A DNA stretch of 7,958 bases from a virus. Its lineage: Duplodnaviria > Heunggongvirae > Uroviricota > Caudoviricetes. Position 1 is the stretch's first letter; each line of letters begins with the position of its first letter. The notes under the pieces are model-generated. The model was given only the letters and a program-made list of their open reading frames with translations. It did not search any database and was not told the origin of the DNA. Below are positions 1 through 7,958 of this stretch, one piece after another. The DNA is taken from positions 1-7,958 of IMG/VR virus record IMGVR_UViG_2579778613_000007, one strand, 5' to 3'. The translations under genes were made by a program, and so were the position numbers.

Positions 1-228
1 GAGGGCTTTGCATTCTGCTTCGGTATACGTTTTACCGAGCATAATGTCTTTTCCGGTATGCCCGTAACATACAGTCCATACACCAACGATATCTTTATAT
101 GGTATGTAGCTGACGCCTTCCAGACCATCGTTACCACTTGGTCCAGTGATTAACACAGATGCTATAGCAATAGCCCCGCCACTTATCGCCGCTATTACGC
201 TATTTCGTAGTGCCGGTGACATTGCCAT
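1..228 (-). CDS. R: SAR endolysin (T4-lysozyme-type muramidase), phage 21 R-like; partial, 3' end lies beyond the window start
   Basis: ORF runs off position 1. ATG at 228-226 with GAGG 9 nt upstream (second ATG at 222-220). Translation [76 protein letters not shown]: Gly/Ala-rich signal-anchor-release segment followed by catalytic spacing E-x8-D-x5-T. Start overlaps the holin 3' end, as is usual in lambdoid lysis cassettes. Confidence 0.9.
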
Positions 229-403
229 TCAATCTGTCCTCGCGCTCTTTGCGCTTGTAGTACCAGTTGATGCCAAATGTGCCGACAGTACAAAGAATAC
301 CAATGATGACAGCCCAGTCATTCAGGGAGAGAATGCCACCCATCGCAGTCAGTCCTCCGAAGCTGTAACTGAACCATTCTCTGATTTTGTCCATACGGTA
401 CAT
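200..403 (-). CDS. Class II holin (pinholin-like, two predicted TM segments) with dual-start motif
   Basis: 67-aa [70 protein letters not shown]. Two hydrophobic segments, the first Gly/Ser-rich, and a charged C-terminus. Lies immediately upstream of and overlapping a SAR endolysin. Met1-Tyr-Arg-Met4 resembles holin/antiholin dual starts. SD GAAGGGG 6 nt upstream of Met1. Confidence 0.8.
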
Positions 404-409
404 GCTCTA

Positions 410-425
410 CCCCTTCATTGAGGGG
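410..425 (-). promoter_or_regulatory. Stem-loop sequestering the holin Shine-Dalgarno sequence (possible translational start-selection element)
   Basis: On the mRNA sense strand CCCCT-caatga-AGGGG forms a 5 bp stem whose 3' arm is the SD for holin Met1. Lambda carries an analogous hairpin (CCCCttattGGGGG, from memory) just upstream of S. Confidence 0.35.
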
Positions 426-530
426 ATTTGCTCTATTTAATTAGGAATAAGGTCGATTACTGATAGAACAAATCCAGGCTACTGTGTTTAGTAATCAGAT
501 TTGTTCGTGACCGATATGCACGGGCAAAAC

Positions 531-560
531 GGCAGGAGGTTGTTAGCGCGACCTCCTGCC
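531..560 (-). other. GC-rich perfect hairpin (10 bp stem, 10 nt loop) between tR' and the holin gene; possible attenuator or RNA processing element
   Basis: GGCAGGAGGT-tgttagcgcg-ACCTCCTGCC; on the minus strand it is followed by GTTTTG. I recall a near-identical hairpin at the same place in lambda. Confidence 0.3.
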
Positions 561-855
561 ACCCGCTTTCACGAAGATCATGTGTAGAAGGCAGCAGCGT
601 AACTATCACTGATGAATTCAGGATAGCCAGTGGCTACGGCTCAGTTTGGGTTGTGGCGGCCGGAATCGAACCGGCTTCCATCGGTGCGCTGCCGATTGCA
701 GTACGCGCGGCGGTCAGCTACATGACTAGTATTTTCACTGTCGCCTATCTGCTAGCTCGCCATTGAGCTTCACCACAACGATAAGAGCACTGCGCGGCAC
801 CTTTCACCAATTCCGCGAGGTCTGCGGGTTCAATGCTCTTACCTGTTGCACAGAT

Positions 856-913
856 ATAAAAAATCCCGAAACCGTTATGCAGGCTCTAACTATTACCTGC
901 GAACTGTTTCGGG
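856..913 (-). terminator. tR'-like rho-independent terminator of the late leader transcript
   Basis: Minus-strand stem CCCGAAAC...GTTTCGGG (865-913) containing an inner GCAGG...CCTGC hairpin, followed by ATTTTTTAT. Position is about 194 nt downstream of the inferred pR' start, as in lambda. Confidence 0.7.
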
Positions 914-1050
914 ATTGCATTTTGCAGACCTCTCAGCCTGCGATGGTTGGAGTTCCAGACGATACGTCGAAGTGACCAACTAGGCGGAATCGGTAGTAAG
1001 CGCCGCCTCTTTTTATCTCACTACCACAACGAGCGAATTAACCCATCGTT
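857..1050 (-). ncRNA. Lambda 6S-like late leader RNA (pR' start to tR')
   Basis: Interval between the inferred pR' +1 (plus coordinate 1050) and the tR' U-tract is 194 nt. The sequence is near-identical to what I recall of the lambda pR'-tR' region. No convincing ORF on this strand. Confidence 0.5.
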
Positions 1051-1085
1051 GGGTCAAATTTACCCAACTTTATTCAAAAAGTCAA
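1050..1085 (-). promoter_or_regulatory. Late promoter pR' with overlapping qut (Q-utilisation) region
   Basis: Minus-strand sequence TTGACT - 17 nt - TAAATT - TGACCC - AACGATGGG. The -35 and -10 hexamers have 17 nt spacing, and the -10-like AACGAT at +1..+6 matches the sigma-dependent pause element of lambda pR'. Located 43 nt downstream of the Q stop codon. Confidence 0.7.
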
Positions 1086-1127
1086 TATCATGCCGTTAAT
1101 ATGTTGCCATCCGTGGCAATCATGCTG

Positions 1128-1751
1128 CTAACGTGTGACCGCATTCAAAATGTTGTCTGCGATTGACTCTTCTTTGTGGCATTGCACCACCAGAGCGTCA
1201 TACAGCGGCTTAACAGTGCGTGACCAGGTGGGTTGGGTAAGATTTGGGATTAGCATCGTCACAGCGCGATATGCGGCGCTTGCTGGCATCCTTGAATAGC
1301 CGACACCTTTGCATCTTCCGCACTCTTTCTCAACAACTCTCCCCCACAGCTCTGTTTTGGCAATATCAACCGCACGGCCTGTACCGTGACAATCTCTGCA
1401 TCTTGCGCCCGGCGTCGCGGCACTACGGCAATAATCCGCATAAGCGAATGTTGCGAGCACTTGCAGTACCTTTGCCTTAGTATTTCCTTCAAGCTTTGCC
1501 ACACCACGGTATTTCCCCGATACCTTGTGTGCAAATTGCATCAGATAGTTGATAGCCTTTTGTTTGTCGTTCTGGCTGAGTTCATGCTTACCGCAGAATG
1601 CAGCCATTCCGAATCCGGCTTGTGATTGCGCCATCCCCATAGCAGCCATCACATCAGTACCGGAAAGAGAGTCAGAAGCCGTAGCCCGTGGTGAGTCGCT
1701 CATCATCGGGCTTTTTGGCGAATGAAATTTAGCTACGCTTTCGAGTCTCAT
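1128..1751 (-). CDS. Q: Late-gene antiterminator Q (lambda Q type, zinc-binding)
   Basis: 207-aa ORF MRLESVAKFHSPKSPMMSDSPRATASD...CRDCHGTGRAVD...CGRCKGVGYS...NAVTR with a Cys4 zinc motif; matches lambda Q as I recall it. Followed by pR'/qut. Start overlaps the ninH stop (ATGA). Confidence 0.95.
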   Translation of the reverse strand: MRLESVAKFHSPKSPMMSDSPRATASDSLSGTDVMAAMGMAQSQAGFGMAAFCGKHELSQNDKQKAINYLMQFAHKVSGKYRGVAKLEGNTKAKVLQVLATFAYADYCRSAATPGARCRDCHGTGRAVDIAKTELWGRVVEKECGRCKGVGYSRMPASAAYRAVTMLIPNLTQPTWSRTVKPLYDALVVQCHKEESIADNILNAVTR

Positions 1752-1936
1752 GGCCTTCCCCTTTTGCCCTGTTTGACCATCAGGACGCCGTTAACTATTA
1801 CGTGACGCTCGCCTTTGCTGTCTCGGTTGTACTTGAGCACTGTTCCTCTTGCGCAGGAAAGCATCCTCGCCACTTCGGTCTGATTTCCTCGTGTCTGGAT
1901 AAGAAGCTCTGGTATCGTTTGAATTGTGGCGTTCAT
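1748..1936 (-). CDS. ninH: NinH-like small DNA-binding protein
   Basis: 62-aa ORF MNATIQTIPELLIQTRGNQTEVARMLSCARGTVLKYNRDSKGERHVIVNGVLMVKQGKRGRP. Shares the GNQTEVAR..C.RGTV.KY core with lambda NinH. Sits directly upstream of Q; ATGA overlaps with both neighbours. Confidence 0.8.
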   Translation of the reverse strand: MNATIQTIPELLIQTRGNQTEVARMLSCARGTVLKYNRDSKGERHVIVNGVLMVKQGKRGRP

Positions 1937-2295
1937 GCGTTCTCCAGTTCGGTGATTTTTATTCCAAGCCTTCCGCCTGGTGCTTTCACACCACGAATTA
2001 CGCGAATGTCATCGAATTGCTCGTCGTCTTCCGCAAATCCGGCGTGGATAAGTGAGTCGAGTAAACCTTTCAGGATGTTATCGAGGTCGCGGCGGCGGGA
2101 GTCTGGAACGTCTGCGATTACTTTGATGCGGAGTCGTGATTTGGTGAAAATGTCTAACTTGAGTTGGCGGATGATTTTCTGAACGTCTTTTCGGTATTTC
2201 TGGCCTTTATCGCTGATGTGGTATTGGCTTCCCCGTCTTCGCCAGTAGGTATTCACCGACGGCGGGTATGGAAGCACAAACTGATATTCGTTCAT
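1933..2295 (-). CDS. rusA: RusA-family Holliday junction resolvase
   Basis: 120-aa ORF MNEYQFVLPYPPSVNTYWRRRG...DVPDSRRRDLDNILKGLLDSL...GGRLGIKITELENA with the RusA catalytic acidic motif (RRRDLDN). Strong SD GGAGGG 8 nt upstream of the ATG at 2295. Confidence 0.9.
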   Translation of the reverse strand: MNEYQFVLPYPPSVNTYWRRRGSQYHISDKGQKYRKDVQKIIRQLKLDIFTKSRLRIKVIADVPDSRRRDLDNILKGLLDSLIHAGFAEDDEQFDDIRVIRGVKAPGGRLGIKITELENA

Positions 2296-2708
2296 GGCTT
2301 AATCTTTCCCTCCTTCAGCAGTATCGCCTGGCTGAATACGACAAAGAGTGCGCGGGATTGCCACATCGAGTATCAGCAAGGAGAGAATATCAATCATCGG
2401 AACGCGGCAGAGAACGGTGTAACGCAGCCAAAAAGCGGTTCATTCAGAGCAACCCATGGAAAAGAAAAGCCCACATCATCGTGGGTAATTTTTTGCGCGA
2501 CGGTAAGCTAATCCGACCACCACAATGTGAGTGCTGCGGATCAGAATGTAAACCACAGGCGCACCACTGCGACTACAGCAAACCAACCGATGTGATGTGG
2601 CTCTGCAAGTCATGTCATGTCGAGTGGCACAAACATAACAAACCTATCTACCCAGAAGAGGAACCAGTAACTCTCCCCTTCCCTCGTCACGCTATTCACG
2701 CAATTTAA
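2268..2708 (+). CDS. HNH-like (His-Me finger) nuclease; start codon uncertain
   Basis: C-terminal motif CECCGSECKPQAHHCDYSKPTDVMWLCKSCHVEWHKH fits the HNH pattern CxxCG...HH...WLCxxCHxxxH. The stop TAA overlaps the SD of the next gene. The ATG at 2268 has no good SD and overlaps the rusA start on the opposite strand by 28 nt; the true start may be internal (for example TTG at 2358). Confidence 0.55.
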   Translation: MEAQTDIRSWLNLSLLQQYRLAEYDKECAGLPHRVSARREYQSSERGRERCNAAKKRFIQSNPWKRKAHIIVGNFLRDGKLIRPPQCECCGSECKPQAHHCDYSKPTDVMWLCKSCHVEWHKHNKPIYPEEEPVTLPFPRHAIHAI

Positions 2709-2716
2709 GGACTTAC

Positions 2717-3265
2717 ATGAATCACTTGATGGTTGACCTTGAAACAATGGGCAACGGGCCATACGCGCCAGTTATTTCTATTGGGGCGGTATTCTTTGAC
2801 CCGAATACCGGAGAAACAGGAGAAGAGTTCTCGGTAAATATCTCGCTTGAGTCATCAATGCGATATCGGGCGCGTCCTGACGCTTCAACGATTTTATGGT
2901 GGATGGAACAGAGTGAAGAAGCCAGAAAATCGCTAACCAGCAACACTCAGGAGCTTTCAACGGCTCTTTCATGGTTATCTGAATTCATCATAAAGAACGC
3001 TAACCACAAATTCGTTCAGGTTTGGGGGAATGGAGCATCATTTGACTGCGTTATTCTCCGAAACAGTTATTCGCTGACAGGGCAGCCAGTTCCGTGGCAG
3101 TGGTGGAATGACCGCGATGTAAGAACAATCGTCGAGCTTGGAAAGGTAATAGGATTCGACCCTAAGCGAGATATGCCATTCAAAGGAACTCGTCACAACG
3201 CGCTTGATGATGCCATCCACCAAGCCAAATACGTTTCAGCAATCTGGAAAAAATTAGCTAAATAA
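2717..3265 (+). CDS. DnaQ-like DEDDh 3'-5' exonuclease
   Basis: 182-aa ORF with all three exonuclease motifs: Exo I MVDLETMG (D, E), Exo II VWGNGASFD (D), Exo III HNALDDAIHQ (H, D). SD AAGGA 5 nt upstream of the ATG. Confidence 0.8.
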   Translation: MNHLMVDLETMGNGPYAPVISIGAVFFDPNTGETGEEFSVNISLESSMRYRARPDASTILWWMEQSEEARKSLTSNTQELSTALSWLSEFIIKNANHKFVQVWGNGASFDCVILRNSYSLTGQPVPWQWWNDRDVRTIVELGKVIGFDPKRDMPFKGTRHNALDDAIHQAKYVSAIWKKLAK

Positions 3266-3281
3266 TCAACAGGAGAAAATC

Positions 3282-3575
3282 ATGCCAGCGCCTCTGTATG
3301 GTGCGGATGACCCGCGCCGCTGTTCCGGCAATTCCGTATCGGAGGTGCTGGCTAAATTCAGAAAAAACTACGACCTGATAATGTCGCTACCGCAGGAAAC
3401 GAAAGAGGAAAAGGAATTTCGCCATTGTATATGGCTTGCAGAGAAAGAAGAACGCGAGCGAATTTACCAGACATCAATCCGACCATTCCGCAAAGCCACA
3501 TATACCCACTTCCCTGAAATTGACCCGCGCCTGCGTAATTACCGCTCACGCTATGGCGCTATCAGTAATGACTGA
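3282..3575 (+). CDS. Hypothetical protein (97 aa)
   Basis: ATG at 3282 preceded by AGGAG; co-oriented, 16 nt after the exonuclease stop. No recognisable domain. Confidence 0.6.
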
Positions 3576-3585
3576 GGAATTTACC

Positions 3586-3753
3586 ATGAGAGGACTTGCA
3601 TACAATCCCGGCATTCTTCAGGCAGAAATGATTATTCGCCAACGCGTAAAGCCAATGCCATCGAGAGAGGAATTGCTTAAGAGAAAGAGTTTCGGTTCTG
3701 TTAATGACAACAAATATCTGAATGCGATGTGGCGCAAAGGAGGCAACCAGTGA
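3586..3753 (+). CDS. Hypothetical small protein (55 aa)
   Basis: ATG at 3586 with GAGG 8 nt upstream. The longer ORF from 3436 in the track overlaps the previous gene in another frame and is less likely. Ends in the repeated motif AGGAGGCAACCAGTGA. Confidence 0.5.
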
Positions 3754-3804
3754 GTAATTCAGCACGACTACAGCTTGGTTTTTCACCGCTATCAAAAAAC
3801 TATC

Positions 3805-4005
3805 ATGCTGGCAAAAATGCGCGATGTTGAAGGTGGGCGTATGCGCGTTGGCAATGATCCAGGTCGTGATGTTACCAATGAGGATGCTCAATTGGTGTGG
3901 CAACTGGTCATGGCTGAAGGTGGTGAGATCGCGTGGGAGCTGGATGATGGTTCTCGCATGGTGTTGAAGGCAGAAAAACAGGAGGCAACCAGTGAACAAG
4001 ATTGA
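3805..4005 (+). CDS. Hypothetical small protein; start uncertain (ORF open from TTG at 3775, first ATG at 3805, no clear SD)
   Basis: Open frame ...MLAKMRDVEGGRMRVGNDPGRDVTNEDAQLVWQLVMAEGGEIAWELDDGSRMVLKAEKQEATSEQD. Its 3' end overlaps the start of the next gene by 14 nt. It may be the downstream part of a frameshifted gene. Confidence 0.4.
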   Translation: MLAKMRDVEGGRMRVGNDPGRDVTNEDAQLVWQLVMAEGGEIAWELDDGSRMVLKAEKQEATSEQD

Positions 4006-4486
4006 CTATCAGGCACTGCGTGAGGCGGCAGAGCGTGCAATTCAGGCAATGGAACGCCTGTTAATGTTGCCAGTTGATGATGATCTGATAAGCGAACAGG
4101 AACTTAAAGATTTCGGTGTGGATATTGATGCGCTCAACGCCTTCAAATTTCTGGCCGGACCAGAAACCGTGCTGGCACTACTTGATGAACGGGAAGCAGA
4201 CAAAAAGCGCATTGCAGAACTGGAAGCTCGGGAAATAAAACCAGCCAAAGGTGAAGTTCTTGTCGTTGTTTCTGGTTTTACTGGTTGCGGAAAAAGCGCC
4301 ATTGCCGGGGAAATAGAAATCGCGATGAAGGCTATTGGTGTACCGGTTCAGTGGACTAATGGCGATGCGGAAAAGCGCATGACAGGAGCTGACTGGCTGA
4401 CAGCGATTGAGATGTACAAACCAACTGTGCGCATCGTGGAAGTTAATGTGCCACGCGTCGCTGGAATTCGCATCAAAGGAGAGTGA
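3992..4486 (+). CDS. Ead/Ea22-like early-region protein
   Basis: GTG start with AGGAGG 6 nt upstream. The N-terminal YQALREAAERA and central TVLALLDERE motifs match what I recall of Ead/Ea22-like prophage proteins. The C-terminal part carries a Walker-A-like GFTGCGKS. Confidence 0.6.
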   Translation: MNKIDYQALREAAERAIQAMERLLMLPVDDDLISEQELKDFGVDIDALNAFKFLAGPETVLALLDEREADKKRIAELEAREIKPAKGEVLVVVSGFTGCGKSAIAGEIEIAMKAIGVPVQWTNGDAEKRMTGADWLTAIEMYKPTVRIVEVNVPRVAGIRIKGE

Positions 4487-4487
4487 T

Positions 4488-4685
4488 ATGGATAAAAACA
4501 CCACTGCCTACTGGAGTCTGTCACTTGATACCGAATGTCCCAAATGTGGTCACAATTTCGATCTGCTTTGTGATCCAGATTTCTGGGAGTTTTCTGGAGC
4601 TAAACAGGCATGTGAAGAAATAAAAGGTTACGAAACATGCTGTCCAGAATGTAACCATGAATTTAAAACAGATTTCGTGTATTGA
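4488..4685 (+). CDS. Small zinc-ribbon protein (65 aa)
   Basis: MDKNTTAYWSLSLDTECPKCGHNFDLLCDPDFWEFSGAKQACEEIKGYETCCPECNHEFKTDFVY with two Cys pairs (CPKC ... CPEC). The ATG lies 1 nt after the upstream TGA within the repeated module AAAGGAGAGTGATATG. Confidence 0.6.
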   Translation: MDKNTTAYWSLSLDTECPKCGHNFDLLCDPDFWEFSGAKQACEEIKGYETCCPECNHEFKTDFVY

Positions 4686-4695
4686 GGCATAACAA

Positions 4696-4812
4696 ATGAC
4701 CACTATTACCAAAGAATGGCTACAGAAAACGATTACCAGCATTGAGTCAGCACGGGATGAAATGCCGTTCGGACTCGATGAAGATCAAAGCAACATGCTT
4801 ACCGCAATTTAA
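4696..4812 (+). CDS. Short ORF (38 aa), possibly the N-terminal remnant of a frameshifted gene
   Basis: ATGACCACTATTACC... (MTTITKEWLQKTITSIESARDEMPFGLDEDQSNMLTAI). Its first 11 nt are identical to the start of the DUF551-like gene at 4979, and the N-terminus resembles MTTIIDKK...LNELITNIEFAAR. Confidence 0.3.
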   Translation: MTTITKEWLQKTITSIESARDEMPFGLDEDQSNMLTAI

Positions 4813-4978
4813 AATTGCACTGGCATCACTGGAAGCAAAACCAATAGGTGCTTTCCACATTGCAGAACAGCAAGTTGACGGCACAAGTGACTATCTCAAG
4901 GATGGAGAATGGCCTATTGATAATGGGATTATTGAAGTCTACACCGCGCCGCCATGCTTCAGGGTAAAGGAGAGTGAT

Positions 4979-5542
4979 ATGACCACTATAATCGATAAGA
5001 AACAGTATCCAGGCGAGCAATATCTTAATGAGCTGATCACCAACATAGAGTTTGCTGCAAGGGCACCAGTTGAAGTCGTGAGAGCAATGGCAGCAGAGCT
5101 ACAGAAGCGGCGCGAAGCTGATAGTGCCGAACCTGCAAGTAATCATGAAGAGTTGCCACTTGATTATCTCCAAGGTCAAAAAGATGGTCTTGAATGGGCT
5201 GCGCAGCTTGCAGAAGCAAATCACCCACAAACTGGCGACTGGCTTTACGATGACCCGCTGGAGCTGGCTAAAGCTATCAGAAAAGGTCCTGACATGCCCG
5301 AATTCGATGGACCAGCTCCGGTAACTCCGGATGGCTGGATAAGCTGTAGTGAGCGAATGCCAGATGATGGTCAGCACGTAATTATTTTATGTGATGGCGC
5401 ATTCGTTCTTTATGCGCAATATCGAGACAGTGAGTTTTTTGATGTTGTCCGCAATGGTGAGGAGTTCTTCGAAACGCAGAGCCGCAATGTAACCCACTGG
5501 ATGCCGCTACCGGAACCGCCGCAGGAGGCTGACAATGGCTAA
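4979..5542 (+). CDS. DUF551-like phage protein; the same frame is open upstream to 4757/4742, so an N-terminally extended form is possible
   Basis: C-terminal PDGWISCSERMPDDGQHVIIL...NVTHWMPLPEPP is the pattern I associate with DUF551. The ATG at 4979 is preceded by AAAGGAGAGTGAT, the same RBS module as at 4475-4490. Confidence 0.65.
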   Translation: MTTIIDKKQYPGEQYLNELITNIEFAARAPVEVVRAMAAELQKRREADSAEPASNHEELPLDYLQGQKDGLEWAAQLAEANHPQTGDWLYDDPLELAKAIRKGPDMPEFDGPAPVTPDGWISCSERMPDDGQHVIILCDGAFVLYAQYRDSEFFDVVRNGEEFFETQSRNVTHWMPLPEPPQEADNG

Positions 5543-5819
5543 TCTGCAACTGGCAGTGAACGGCGAATACTTCGACCAGATGAAGCGGGGCGAGAAAACG
5601 GAAGAGTATCGCCTGTGTAATGACTACTGGAATAAGCGAATTATGTTCCGGGAGTATGACCGCCTGATTATCACAAAGGGATATCCGAAGCGCGACGATT
5701 CCAGTCGCAGAATTGATGTTCCGTATGGTGGATATGAAATCAAGACAATCACACATCCGCACTTCGGCGATAAACCGGTAAAGGTGTTCGCGATAAAGGT
5801 GAATATCGGCAATGAATAA
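5535..5819 (+). CDS. ASCH/PUA-like small protein (94 aa)
   Basis: MANLQLAVNGEYFDQMKRGEKTEEYRL... The G-x-K-T-x-E-x-R signature near the N-terminus and the size fit an ASCH-type fold. AGGAGG 6 nt upstream of the ATG; overlaps the DUF551-like gene stop by 8 nt. Confidence 0.5.
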   Translation: MANLQLAVNGEYFDQMKRGEKTEEYRLCNDYWNKRIMFREYDRLIITKGYPKRDDSSRRIDVPYGGYEIKTITHPHFGDKPVKVFAIKVNIGNE

Positions 5820-5822
5820 CAT

Positions 5823-5847
5823 CCTCGCACTCGCGGGGATTTCTTTT
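5823..5847 (+). terminator. Rho-independent terminator (first of a tandem pair)
   Basis: Stem CCTCGC-actc-GCGGGG (one G-U pair) followed by ATTTCTTTT, 4 nt after the ASCH-like stop codon. Confidence 0.55.
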
Positions 5848-5852
5848 ATCTG

Positions 5853-5877
5853 AACTCGCTACGGCGAGTTTTGTTTT
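5853..5877 (+). terminator. Rho-independent terminator (second of a tandem pair)
   Basis: Stem AACTCGC-tacg-GCGAGTT followed by TTGTTTT. Confidence 0.6.
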
Positions 5878-5890
5878 ATGGAGACAAGAA

Positions 5891-6235
5891 ATGTCAGATT
5901 TGGCTATGAAGATTTTGAAATGGCAATCGACTGGCGATGTCGGCATCAGTAGCGCAACTCTTGCCTCAATCGCATGTGGACTGAAAAAGAATATCTATGG
6001 TCATCACTTCGGCGCTCCACATGATGCAGCCGATTTCCGGCGATGCGTTGCACTTGTTGAGCAGATTCCAGAAATCAGAGATTCATTCGACAAGGTTGCA
6101 AAGCGCGTTCCGGCATTCAAAGGAATCCTCAACGAATGGGATTCACTCGTTGCTCTGTTGAAGTCTGAAATGAAGACGTACGGGAACAAAGCACCAGAGA
6201 CTTACAGAAGAATCAGCGAGCTACGCAAGGACTAA
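5891..6235 (+). CDS. Hypothetical protein (114 aa), moron-like gene flanked by terminators
   Basis: ATG at 5891 with GGAG 7 nt upstream. Product MSDLAMKILKWQSTGDVGISSATLASIACGLKKNIYGHHFGAPHDAADFRRCVALVEQIPEIRD... has no domain I recognise. Terminators lie on both sides. Confidence 0.6.
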   Translation: MSDLAMKILKWQSTGDVGISSATLASIACGLKKNIYGHHFGAPHDAADFRRCVALVEQIPEIRDSFDKVAKRVPAFKGILNEWDSLVALLKSEMKTYGNKAPETYRRISELRKD

Positions 6236-6292
6236 CCCGCCTCACACTCGATGAGGCATTTTCATTTATCAAGATATCCAGACCTACCATCG

Positions 6293-6313
6293 CCGCATCA
6301 ATGCGGTTTTTTT
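6293..6313 (+). terminator. Rho-independent terminator
   Basis: Stem CCGCA-tcaa-TGCGG followed by TTTTTTT, 58 nt after the stop of the 114-aa gene. Confidence 0.65.
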
Positions 6314-6358
6314 ATTGCCTGATTTGCAGGTTCGATTCCCTATTCGGAGATAGCACTC

Positions 6359-6559
6359 ATGCAACACGAACTACAACCTGATTCACTGGTTGATTTGAAA
6401 TTCATCATGGCCGATACTGGCTTCGGTAAAACCTTCATCTACGACCGGATTAAGTCCGGCGACCTGCCAAAAGCCAAAGTTATCCACGGACGAGCAAGAT
6501 GGTTATATCGTGACCATTGTGAGTTCAAAAATAAGCTCTTAAGTCGCGCCAATGGGTAA
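6359..6559 (+). CDS. AlpA/Xis-family excisionase-like DNA-binding protein
   Basis: 66-aa ORF MQHELQPDSLVDLKFIMADTGFGKTFIYDRIKSGDLPKAKVIHGRARWLYRDHCEF... Shows the AlpA-type winged-helix pattern (I..TG.GKT.IY..I..G..P...VI.GRA.W). GGAG 9 nt upstream of the ATG. Confidence 0.8.
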   Translation: MQHELQPDSLVDLKFIMADTGFGKTFIYDRIKSGDLPKAKVIHGRARWLYRDHCEFKNKLLSRANG

Positions 6560-6609
6560 AATAGCGGGTAAAATATTTTTCACATATAAAAAATACCATT
6601 CCAATCAAT

Positions 6610-6641
6610 CCCCTGCCGCTTCAAGTAGATGTCTGCAGGGG
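6610..6641. repeat. Inverted repeat CCCCTGC - 18 nt - GCAGGGG in the ORF-free tract
   Basis: Perfect 7 bp inverted repeat, preceded by an AT-rich stretch (6572-6598). Function unknown. Confidence 0.3.
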
Positions 6642-7035
6642 ACACCAGATACCCTTCAAACGAAATCTACCTTCACCCCGTAAAAGATGGGTTTGGCAGC
6701 ACACTTGCCTTATATCTACTCATTTTTACTGCAACAGGTTGAAATCTCAGCACTGTCAGAAAGCGCTGATGACTAAACAGCCCTGGGCCGGGCGATGTAA
6801 CCATCACACAGAATCCTGATAGCGAAATATGGCGTGACTCGATACTTCACTCCGCAATGCATTCCTTGATGAATTCGCAGGACCGTGATACACGGGACAG
6901 GTCACTGAATGACGACAATGTCCTGGAAATCAGCGAACCGCGCATCTGAAGTACATTTGAGCGACTGTACCAGAACATGAATGAGGCGTTTGGATTAGGC
7001 GATTATTAGCAGGGCTAAGCATTTTACTATTATTA

Positions 7036-7079
7036 TTTTCCGGTTGAGGGATATAGAGCTATCGACAACAACCGGAAAA
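7036..7079. repeat. Inverted repeat TTTTCCGGTTG - 22 nt - CAACCGGAAAA immediately 3' of the permease gene; possible bidirectional terminator or boundary hairpin
   Basis: Perfect 11 bp inverted repeat 10 nt downstream of the permease stop (7089-7091 on the minus strand). A/T tracts lie inside the stem rather than after it, so it is not a classical intrinsic terminator. Confidence 0.35.
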
Positions 7080-7088
7080 AGTTTACGT

Positions 7089-7958
7089 CTATATTGCTGA
7101 AGGTACAGGCGTTTCCATAACTATTTGCTCGCGTTTTTTACTCAAGAAGAAAATGCCAAATAGCAACATCAGGCAGACAATACCCGAAATTGCGAAGAAA
7201 ACTGTCTGGTAGCCTGCGTGGTCAAAGAGTATCCCAGTCGGCGTTGAAAGCAGCACAATCCCAAGCGAACTGGCAATTTGAAAACCAATCAGAAAGATCG
7301 TCGACGACAGGCGCTTATCAAAATTTGCCACGCTGTATTTGAAGACGGATATGACACAAAGTGGAACCTCAATAGCATGTAACAGCTTCACTAATGAAAT
7401 AATCCAGGGGTTAACGAACAGCGCGCAGGAAAGGATACGCAACGCCATAATCACAACACCGATAAGTAATGCATTTTTTGGCCCTACCCGATTCACAAAG
7501 AAAGGAATAATCGCCATGCATAGCGCTTCGAGTACCACCTGGAATGAGTTGAGATAACCATACAGGCGCGTTCCTACATCGTGTGATTCGAATAAACCTG
7601 CATAAAAGACAGGAAAAAGTTGTTGATCAAAAATGTTATAGAAAGACCACGTCCCCACAATAAATATGACGAAAACCCAGAAGTTTCGATCCTTGAAAAC
7701 TGCGATAAAATCCTCTTTTTTTACCCCTCCCGCATCCGCCGCTACGCACTGGTGATCCTTATCTTTAAAACACATGTTGATCATCATAAATACAGCGCCA
7801 AATAGCGAGACCAACCAGAAGTTGATATGGGGACTGATACTAAAAAATATGCCGGCAAAGAACGCGCCAATAGCATAGCCAAAAGATCCCCAGGCGCGCG
7901 CTGTTCCATATTCGAAATGAAAATTTCGCGCCATTTTTTCGGTGAAGCTGTCAAGCAA
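7089..7958 (-). CDS. LacY-family oligosaccharide:H+ symporter (MFS), possibly a CscB-like sucrose permease; partial, 5' end beyond the window end
   Basis: The 289-aa C-terminal portion aligns by eye with LacY: EKMARNFHFEYGTARAWG vs EKVSRRSNFEFGRARMFG, DQQLFPVFY vs DQQFANFF, PKNALLIGVVIMALRI vs GKNALLLAGTIMSVRI, LHAIEVP vs LHMFEVP (LacY H322/E325 region). Multiple hydrophobic TM segments. AT-rich codon usage unlike the phage part. Confidence 0.9.
   Translation of the reverse strand: MLDSFTEKMARNFHFEYGTARAWGSFGYAIGAFFAGIFFSISPHINFWLVSLFGAVFMMINMCFKDKDHQCVAADAGGVKKEDFIAVFKDRNFWVFVIFIVGTWSFYNIFDQQLFPVFYAGLFESHDVGTRLYGYLNSFQVVLEALCMAIIPFFVNRVGPKNALLIGVVIMALRILSCALFVNPWIISLVKLLHAIEVPLCVISVFKYSVANFDKRLSSTIFLIGFQIASSLGIVLLSTPTGILFDHAGYQTVFFAISGIVCLMLLFGIFFLSKKREQIVMETPVPSAI

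Follow-up and report, generated by a model that had tools for sequence, protein, structure and literature searches.

The window analysed here (7,958 nt; IMG/VR virus record IMGVR_UViG_2579778613_000007, positions 1 to 7,958) carries an HNH-like open reading frame, a DEDDh exonuclease gene and abc2 in close succession on one strand, with rusA immediately to their left on the other (Table 1). The first-pass annotation had described two reading frames 8 bp apart, with the HNH stop codon lying within the SD of the exonuclease, and the coordinates bear this out: the HNH frame ends in TAA at 2706–2708, the exonuclease ATG begins at 2717, and the exonuclease SD AAGGA at 2707–2711 overlaps the stop codon. 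It had also placed the pair at the head of an accessory operon. This part of the description does not survive, since the apparent operon head is a deletion junction, the first 20 codons of the HNH frame are antisense rusA and junction DNA, and a search for a sigma-70-like promoter in 1900–3400 found none. The sole plus-strand promoter-like site in 1–2400, at 306–334, is weak. Expression of the exonuclease from the remnant could occur via a weak or non-canonical promoter or by read-through transcription. The upstream operon of rusA is gone as well, and the first 28 nt of this gene overlap the chimeric HNH frame.

Table 1. Features of the nuclease locus and its immediate surroundings (window coordinates).
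Feature	Coordinates	Strand	Remarks
rusA, Holliday-junction resolvase of the nin region	1933..2295	-	Pfam PF05866, E 1.6e-15; annotated homologue in locus L002
Chimeric HNH-like ORF	2268..2708	+	146 aa; codons 1–20 are antisense rusA and junction DNA; ATG inside antisense rusA
Deletion junction	2326..2330	.	5-bp microhomology GCCTG; placed by three-way alignment
HNH (His-Me finger) core	2526..2630	+	CxxC 2526–2537; HH 2562–2567; D/Y/P; W-L-C-x2-C-H 2598–2618; WH 2625–2630
Conserved cassette-boundary sequence	2663..2716	+	last 14 codons of the gp26-like gene (PVTLPFPRHAIHAI), stop codon and exonuclease SD
DEDDh 3'-5' exonuclease, intact	2717..3265	+	182 aa; Rv2179c-like/T4 DexA family; predicted DnaQ-type Rec-module nuclease
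abc2, P22-type anti-RecBCD, last Rec-module gene	3282..3575	+	Pfam PF11043, E 6e-64; PHROG 656

The exonuclease matches the Pfam family PF16473 (Rv2179c-like) with an E-value of 2.8e-73 and 245.8 bits against a cut-off of 27, residues 2–177 covering positions 1–177 of the 177 in the profile, and PHROG 255 ‘exonuclease’ with an E-value of 2e-86. The Pfam, PHROG and PDB searches returned DEDDh exonuclease families only. The residues D7, E9, D110, H160 and D165 are present and aligned with those of homologues (H-x4-D), which together with the full-length profile match supports the earlier description of an intact DEDDh set, and they correspond to the catalytic set D7, D119, H186 and D191 of T4 DexA (PMC12153337). 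DexA (exonuclease A; PDB 8KEL/8KEN) has a homologous DEDDh fold and the same catalytic set; its structure 8KEL is matched over residues 4–161 (E 6.8e-14), and W130 and D152 of the window protein are the equivalents of DexA W152 and D169, the proposed 5hmC contacts. The two proteins differ in that they are only about 31% identical, the DexA chain is 227 aa long, and the window protein is without several DexA loops and without the insertion bearing the tetramerisation residue D90. The setting is also unlike that of T4 DexA, as the window gene belongs to the recombination module of a temperate phage with unmodified DNA.

The 3'-5' polarity, the DNA or RNA substrate and the role of the window enzyme are proposed by analogy with T4 DexA, which acts on DNA, and Rv2179c, which acts on RNA. 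A much closer relative is gene 34 of epsilon34 (90% identical), which a study of lambdoid phages (PMC12315714) treats as a legitimate DnaQ-type Rec-module nuclease. In phage Tritos this domain makes up the C-terminal end of an 823-aa Rec nuclease, and the exact sequence of the window exonuclease is found on at least 1000 contigs.

The HNH gene presents a different picture. Three-way alignment shows that the DNA to the left of the junction matches rusA and its upstream nin-region DNA, while the DNA to the right matches the Sf6 gene 26 homologue from codon 33 onwards, so that codons 21–146 of the chimeric frame are codons 34–159 of that gene. Positions 2331–2708 are identical to locus L001 at 374 of 378 nt, and the full-length L001 product (159 aa) is identical to Sf6 gp26; there are just two amino-acid differences within the retained gp26-like part of the window frame. 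Its native start, ribosome site and N-terminal CxxC...CxxC zinc ribbon are all gone. This 5' truncation confirms the suspicion, voiced from the letters alone, that the HNH gene has an ambiguous start and is partly degraded, and the window copy is most likely a non-functional remnant, judging from the sequence. Every E. coli match to the window breaks at the position of the junction. What the deletion removed is extensive: the heads of the pR and pL operons, the immunity and replication genes, N, cIII, kil, the annealing-protein gene and ssb.

It is also important to consider whether the truncated frame still encodes a recognizable HNH core. Absence of the HNH catalytic residues on alignment had been raised as a possible objection to the assignment, and here the alignment is favorable: the histidines and the CxxC...CxxC zinc-site residues are present, and the window frame retains all family-invariant residues (C..C, HH, D, Y, P, W and LC..CH...H) of the core. 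In gp26 numbering, H112/H113, H130, H134, C100 and C126 are invariant or nearly so in alignments of 37 and of 90 homologues, and C103 is conserved to 90% or more in each alignment; C129 reaches this level in the 37-homologue set only, with His instead in some members. The position of the canonical HNH Asn holds Asp or Glu. The fold of the gp26-like protein is confidently predicted to be a His-Me finger (beta-beta-alpha-metal), with a zinc ribbon at the N-terminus and a linker of four helices as additional elements.

The best structural matches of the gp26-like protein are the zinc-bound HNH nucleases Gme HNH (4H9D), EcoKMcrA (6GHC), T5 SciA (9QGX), GVE2 HNH (5H0O) and P1 Ref (3PLW), with which it shares the predicted beta-beta-alpha-metal core, the CxxC...CxxC zinc ligands and the HH...H motif. 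It differs from them in having no significant match to a Pfam HNH profile, in carrying Asp or Glu for the canonical Asn, and in its additional ribbon and linker. At the level of sequence the family is not recognized. Searched against Pfam, NCBIfam and PADLOC, neither the HNH-like protein nor any of 127 homologues matched a family significantly, and the curated HNH profiles PF01844, PF13392, PF14279 and PF02945 gave no significant match (the best being PF01844, with E-values of 0.68–0.89 in 2 of 37 members and in none of 90). PDB sequence searches with the protein and with the profile found no match, and Foldseek against the PDB returned nothing significant. Comparison of the family profile by hhalign with HK97 gp74 (HNH; probability 0.4%) and with an HNH_3 protein (not significant) used single-sequence templates, which are too weak for a test.

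The setting of both genes becomes clear from intact relatives. In lambdoid phages the “Rec module” is an early-left cluster of SSB, nuclease, annealing protein and anti-RecBCD, as described in PMC12315714 (Genome Res 2025). The module is found in intact form in a prophage of E. coli WP7-S17, in Sf6, in E. coli W and in the isolated phage Bas106 (PQ850599.1; HNH gene 0032, exonuclease gene 0031), and the order of Rad52-like annealing protein, SSB, HNH, exonuclease and Abc2 is seen in Bas106 and in prophages of 36 complete E. coli genomes. The closest known counterparts are the Sf6 module (genes 28–25) and the epsilon34 DnaQ-type nuclease; the intact relative encodes an HNH protein identical to Sf6 gp26, and the operon position and the neighbors (Rad52-like annealing protein, SSB-1 and Abc2) are the same as in lambdoid Rec modules. 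The difference from catalogued modules is that two nucleases, HNH and DnaQ-type, occur in one module. PMC12315714 reports just one module with two nucleases (Exo and HNH) from the 246 Enterobacteriales panel phages whose Rec modules are recognizable. In the window the module is broken: what remains of it is abc2, the exonuclease gene and a truncated HNH gene, and the deletion has taken away the annealing-protein gene, ssb and pL.

These relatives change how the locus is to be read. The claim that a recombination module is absent holds for the annealing-protein and ssb genes and fails for abc2, which lies directly downstream of the exonuclease. The related idea that the nuclease pair stands in place of such a module has to be abandoned, as both genes belong to the very module whose other genes were deleted. 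A role in DNA end processing or recombination, which had been suggested among other roles, fits the context well, because the intact relatives hold both genes inside the Rec module, between ssb and abc2.

We then consider how tightly the two nuclease genes are associated. In 5,426 complete E. coli genomes the HNH gene is found 99 times, the exonuclease gene 172 times (gene-only matches, with flanking DNA left out) and the two contiguously 36 times, so each occurs more often without the other than with it. Sf6 has the HNH gene and no exonuclease, E. coli W has the exonuclease and no HNH gene, and among 76 IMG/VR loci the exonuclease directly follows the HNH gene in only 5. The genes are not inherited as a unit, contrary to the description of a tightly coupled pair, and an obligate pairing is ruled out by Sf6, E. 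coli W and the IMG/VR loci. The close spacing is better seen as a property of the cassette boundary than of the pair, because E. coli W has the same stop/SD junction between ssb and the exonuclease gene, the 3' tail of its ssb being the 14-codon tail of gp26. The boundary sequence is common to HNH alleles that are just 47–51% identical, and deletion chimeras of the types ssb::HNH and HNH::exo are found in databases. By their sequences, the HNH and exonuclease genes each appear to form a cassette of one gene that can be present or absent, independently of the other, between ssb and abc2, and that is swapped at short conserved boundaries.

Taken together, the locus very probably stems from a defective prophage of the P22/Sf6-like (Lederbergvirus) type and represents the distal end of its Rec module, the HNH gene having been cut by a deletion. 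A microhomology-mediated event would have brought the nin region, at rusA, up against codon 33 of the HNH gene, and this fusion would have left the HNH copy promoterless, start-less and without its N-terminal zinc ribbon; the exonuclease and abc2 would have come through intact, but with pL lost. In the intact module, RecBCD would be retooled by Abc2 and strands annealed by SSB and the annealing protein, while the DEDDh enzyme may strip the 3' ends, tails or flaps of DNA intermediates, comparable to T4 DexA in homing-associated repair. The HNH enzyme may nick or cut DNA and so start recombination, or may alternatively be a homing-type selfish nuclease riding beside ssb. A point that counts against this explanation is that 3'-5' exonucleases in E. 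coli usually inhibit recombination and do not promote it, a point also made in PMC12315714.

The nuclease pair thus belongs to an ordinary and already described kind of phage gene set, and does not amount to a new nuclease system, because it is what a large deletion left of a P22/Sf6-like recombination cluster. The features that made it striking have ordinary causes: a deletion gave the pair its place at an operon head, and the tight coupling reflects a cassette boundary that is shared. The window finding itself matters little, being the decayed part of a phage recombination module that is already known.

The nature of the gp26-like enzyme in intact phages is a separate question. It is possible, if on balance doubtful, that it is a selfish free-standing homing endonuclease that targets the ssb–abc2 region and has no part in recombination, the neighboring exonuclease being there by accident or as a homing aid in the manner of DexA in T4 intron homing, a process in which DexA is reported to act. 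In its favor, the HNH gene is present or absent between near-identical flanks (Sf6 and WP7-S17 vs. E. coli W), with the 14-codon ssb tail as its footprint in E. coli W, and in locus L006 the module has received another HNH gene, an unrelated HNH_3; PMC12315714 likewise warns that HNH genes are mobile. Set against this is the position directly after ssb, which, as would be expected of a working member of the module, is kept in relatives of only 35–55% identity in distant hosts alongside Rad52, Erf, Sak, Sak4-like and RecE-like nuclease genes. In the IMG/VR set the HNH gene directly follows ssb in 51 of 76 loci, and at least 8 of the remaining 25 have a recombination gene near it (ERF or AAA_24/Sak4-like from the locus listing, YqaJ or Sak from scanned upstream ORFs); 6 of the 10 upstream ORFs scanned at loci where ssb is not directly adjacent have no Pfam match. 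The ssb–HNH adjacency spans non-homologous annealing proteins. Synteny cannot separate a module member from a homing gene, however, because a homing gene targeting ssb would also stay beside ssb.

The opposite proposal goes furthest in assigning a function, and we offer it as a tentative and rather unlikely one. The gp26-like protein would be a working, SSB-linked Rec-module nuclease, not a selfish one, and would form with the exonuclease a two-nuclease end-processing unit in which the HNH enzyme nicks or breaks DNA and the exonuclease trims 3' ends for the Abc2-modified RecBCD and the annealing protein. The exonuclease of the remnant might in addition protect the host against phages with modified DNA.

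Protection of the host is the whole of a further reading, in which the prophage carries the exonuclease as an HREX-type defence gene that degrades incoming 5hmC phage DNA, spares host DNA and has been kept because it protects the host, the HNH fragment being irrelevant. The precedent is EcD, a DexA homologue of E. coli that degrades T4 DNA and protects cells from T4 (PMC12153337). The window protein is also a DexA homologue borne by E. coli and has the catalytic set conserved. The sequence features used in that paper are there as well, as the proposed 5hmC contacts have their equivalents and the D90 insertion is missing, and the gene is intact and identical to the widespread allele noted above. 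We nevertheless regard this reading as quite unlikely. Intact phages encode the exonuclease within the pL early operon, and since the repressor shuts this operon in a lysogen, the gene is not placed as a lysogen-expressed defence gene would be; a sister remnant that occupies the same site in the chromosome no longer has the exonuclease, PADLOC gives a weak generic DEDDh match (E 2e-4), and the promoter search described above found nothing to drive the gene. Compared with EcD, the window exonuclease has a different N-terminus and a phage early-operon context. Identity with the published EcD itself is rejected, as the EcD cloning primer encodes MIDTET... and the window protein starts with MNHLMVDLET.

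The rusA|gp26 junction could also be an assembly artefact that fuses two prophage fragments, in which case the truncation would not be biological. Misassembly is frequent at prophage repeats, and none of the 5,426 complete E. coli genomes carries the junction. However, a misjoin based on overlaps or k-mers would need more than the 5 bp common to both sides, the two sides are oriented exactly as a simple internal prophage deletion would leave them, and at the same site in the chromosome a sister strain has an internal deletion that resembles this one but is distinct from it, so that we consider an artefact very unlikely.

Short oligoribonucleotides are substrates of some DEDDh enzymes, the exoribonuclease Rv2179c gave the Pfam family its name, and the adjoining abc2 is a counter-defence gene aimed at RecBCD, yet the analysis yielded no support for signal degradation, and it is extremely improbable that the pair is an anti-defence module degrading immune signals (the cyclic oligonucleotides of CBASS or type III CRISPR), given that the closest characterised relative, T4 DexA, is a DNA exonuclease, that the recombination-module context is consistent across relatives, that the two genes are not inherited as a unit (Sf6, E. 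coli W, IMG/VR), that the window HNH copy is truncated and that the known signal-degrading anti-defence enzymes (Acb1, Apyc1 and AcrIII-1) have other folds.

Two outcomes of the comparison are of moderate use beyond the window. Bas106, which can be cultivated, carries an HNH gene together with a DnaQ-type nuclease gene in its module, so that this phage could serve to test accessory Rec-module nucleases, and the DexA-like enzyme in recombination vs. defence. The gp26-like HNH family is very common and usually found right after phage ssb. It comprises 65,830 cluster representatives that are systematically unannotated because Pfam and NCBIfam, which have no model for it, and PGAP, which leaves its members unannotated, all miss the family.

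The locus is what is left of the distal part of a phage recombination module of a known type: an HNH gene that has lost its 5' end, an intact exonuclease gene of the DexA/DnaQ type, and abc2. What the first-pass annotation had seen in the sequence is real, but the framing given to it is wrong. The stop codon of the HNH ORF (2706-2708) is overlapped by AAGGA at 2707-2711 and followed 8 bp on by the exonuclease ATG at 2717, exactly as described. The exonuclease also has its DEDDh set intact (D7, E9, D110, H160 and D165) and is a full-length Rv2179c-like member in the Pfam profile search (E 2.8e-73), and the HNH-type motif C-x2-C ... HH ... W-L-C-x2-C-H-x3-H is present at nt 2526-2630.

Features of the window, in order of position
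Feature	Coordinates	Strand	Remark
Holin-like ORF	200-403	-	
Q	1128-1751	-	
ninH-like ORF	1748-1936	-	
rusA	1933-2295	-	
HNH-like ORF of the pair	2268-2708	+	
Exonuclease of the pair	2717-3265	+	
abc2	3282-3575	+	directly after the pair
Cys-rich small early-left ORF	4407-4685		PHROG 4173
Small early-left gene, 94 aa	5535-5819		PHROG 625; ASCH domain by annotation in E. coli W
Small early-left gene, 114 aa	5891-6235		PHROG 1229
TorI/Xis-like gene	6359-6559	+	cscB on the opposite strand ~500 bp further
cscB (sucrose transporter)	7089-7958	-	adjoins the prophage

The window holds a defective lambdoid prophage of P22/Sf6 (Lederbergvirus) type. Downstream of abc2 it carries an ead/Ea22 gene, then a DUF551 gene, two small ones of no assigned function and the TorI/Xis-like gene. 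No integrase gene follows xis in the window, and in relatives the gap between the TorI/Xis-like gene and cscB holds a DUF4942 fragment; the prophage is therefore cut off at this end as well.

The doubt expressed earlier about the HNH start proved well founded, since the first 32 codons are missing at a deletion junction. In a three-way alignment of the window with an intact relative (L001) and a sister remnant, the DNA left of ~2330 is that found upstream of rusA, and the DNA right of ~2326 is the homologue of Sf6 gene 26, entered at codon 33, with 5 bp (GCCTG) common to both sides; the ATG at 2268 sits within antisense rusA. The full-length gp26-like gene encodes 159 aa (L001:5904-6383) and its product is identical to Sf6 gp26. 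The lost codons encode a CxxC...CxxC motif, which the structure model folds into a small sheet resembling a zinc ribbon. The kept part is identical to the intact relative at 374/378 nt, with 2 amino acid changes, so the deletion is recent. Among 5,426 complete E. coli genomes not one contains the junction; all E. coli matches to the junction-spanning DNA stop at 2326. The orientation of both sides fits a single internal deletion. By comparison with the intact relative, it would have taken part of the nin region, the genes for replication and immunity, the promoters pR and pL, and N, cIII, kil, ssb and the gene for the annealing protein. In the sister strain, the same site of the chromosome carries an internal deletion different from this one. 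Given this junction, and since a sequence scan found no sigma-70-like promoter around the pair, its apparent position at the head of an operon is a product of the deletion.

Intact modules illustrate what was lost. The early-left operon of an E. coli WP7-S17 prophage runs kil, a Rad52-family annealing protein, ssb, an unannotated gp26-like ORF, the 3'-5' exonuclease and abc2, and the isolated phage Bas106 has the same five genes (97.6% identity to the HNH protein and 99.5% to the exonuclease of the window). Sf6 has the annealing protein, ssb, gp26 and abc2 without the exonuclease, and E. coli W has the annealing protein, ssb, exonuclease and abc2 without the HNH gene. In the E. coli W prophage ssb (L005:6531-7046), the C-terminal 14 residues, PVTLPFPRHAIHAI, correspond to the last codons of gp26; they are the last of 15 extra residues (APVTLPFPRHAIHAI) past the canonical ...DDDIPF end (compare window 2663-2708). 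SSB partners bind the free C-terminal IPF tip, and the fused tail may disable this binding. The tail also accounts for the old Sf6 annotation that gp26 and an E. coli SSB have 14 contiguous residues in common. The same tail is common to HNH alleles of only 47-51% identity, and in comparison with Sf6 the exonuclease gene has been inserted cleanly between the stop codon of gp26 and the SD of abc2. Together these comparisons indicate that the HNH and exonuclease genes behave as separate cassettes swapped at short boundary sequences. The stop/SD/ATG junction after the E. coli W ssb is that of the window; the tight coupling proposed for the pair belongs to the boundary rather than to the pair. Among the 5,426 complete E. 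coli genomes, 99 carry this HNH allele, 172 this exonuclease allele, and 36 both contiguously.

Database proteins include in-frame deletion chimeras (P0011, P0014, P0024, P0053), for example SSB(1-105)::HNH(86-159), fused at a common IVG, and HNH(1-57)::exonuclease(110-182), from which it follows that decay of the module region is recurrent in E. coli prophages. A 90%-identity cluster with Sf6 gp26 also holds ordinary phage SSB proteins of 157 aa. This is probably an artefact of the clustering, with such chimeras as the bridge, and the cluster-derived name "single-stranded DNA-binding protein" would mislabel gp26. At L006:4060-4527, an otherwise similar module has a second and unrelated endonuclease gene, of HNH_3 type, inserted after the Rad52-like gene and before ssb; the module appears to be an insertion hot spot for HNH genes.

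Pfam, NCBIfam, PADLOC and PDB sequence searches gave no significant match for the HNH-like protein or 127 homologues, and no curated sequence profile placed it in an HNH family. It matches PHROG 2340, labelled "endonuclease". The gp26-like family has no Pfam or NCBIfam model despite 65,830 cluster representatives in a profile search at E <=1e-3 (30,699 at E <=1e-10), and among the RefSeq/PGAP matches listed (L001:5904-6383 and E. coli genomes) the 159-aa ORF is without annotation. The AlphaFold model is confident (pLDDT 92.9), with an N-terminal ribbon, four helices and then a beta hairpin plus helix. Structure-match scores are low, which is to be expected when the domain has ~50 residues; enrichment of the matches for a single fold class and the invariant Cys/His pattern support a predicted His-Me finger nuclease.

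We surveyed 80 IMG/VR loci encoding relatives of the HNH protein, 76 of which have >=500 nt upstream. The gene directly upstream is ssb in 51 of the 76; among the other 25, at least 8 have a recombination gene near the HNH gene, with ERF or AAA_24 (Sak4-like) genes among those listed. A Pfam scan of 10 upstream ORFs gave one YqaJ exonuclease and one Sak annealing protein; one short ORF had no match, nor did six of the seven others. Phages of Pantoea, Hafnia, Vibrio and Pararheinheimera add further examples, in which the partners are Erf, RecE-like or ExoX-like. The HNH gene is thus a regular part of recombination modules, next to ssb, regardless of the annealing protein. Only 5/76 loci have a DEDDh exonuclease gene immediately downstream, and the pairing itself is not conserved. 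In a Pantoea prophage (L010:2909-5498) and a Hafnia prophage (L022:2901-5540), an ExoX-like DEDDh exonuclease (RNase_T and ExoX-like_C domains) and a weakly AAA_24-like protein are encoded upstream of a distant gp26-like gene, at a distance of three genes; the two gene types thus occur together in an early operon a second time, with non-homologous members.

For the intact module, the most likely mechanism, judging from homologues and context, is that the exonuclease would trim DNA intermediates at 3' ends or flaps, in concert with Abc2-modified RecBCD, SSB and the annealing protein. Nicks or breaks would come from the HNH enzyme, or this may be selfish; the survey synteny is equally compatible with a working module nuclease and with an ssb-targeting homing gene. 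A defence role has a reported precedent in EcD, a DexA homologue from E. coli that is described as degrading DNA with 5hmC and as giving protection from T4 (PMC12153337, NAR 2025). Identity of the exonuclease with EcD was rejected, the EcD cloning primer encoding MIDTET. The exonuclease keeps W130 and D152, the equivalents of DexA W152 and D169, and lacks the insertion carrying DexA D90, so an EcD-like activity is possible; its expression for defence in lysogens of intact phages is argued against by the location of the gene in a repressor-controlled early operon. Degradation of cyclic-oligonucleotide signals by the pair, suggested earlier, is supported by no result here.

Recombination remains the preferred setting for the exonuclease. 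According to PMC12315714 (Genome Res 2025), lambdoid Rec modules are combinations of genes for SSB, a nuclease (of Exo, RecE, DnaQ-like or HNH type), an annealing protein and an anti-RecBCD protein, and the epsilon34 DnaQ nuclease is a likely true member. That paper gives a single case of two nucleases in one module, Exo plus HNH, so the HNH plus DnaQ arrangement is uncommon, yet a recombination of known parts. The exonuclease is found in 1,887 phage records, T4-like dexA genes among them, and shows 98.9% identity to genes in mEp235 and mEpX2, both phages, and 90.1% to epsilon34 gene 34; a PDB sequence search returned no relatives besides T4 DexA (8KEL, 8KEN; E about 1e-13). A 60%-identical homologue, gene 34 of phage LLS, is annotated as hypothetical. 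The 823-aa nuclease of phage Tritos (L017:1584-4055), another prototype in PMC12315714, carries a C-terminal Rv2179c-like exonuclease domain at residues 642-813; it is annotated "exonuclease VIII", has no Pfam match over residues 1-640, and is followed by xis and int rather than by a recT-like gene.
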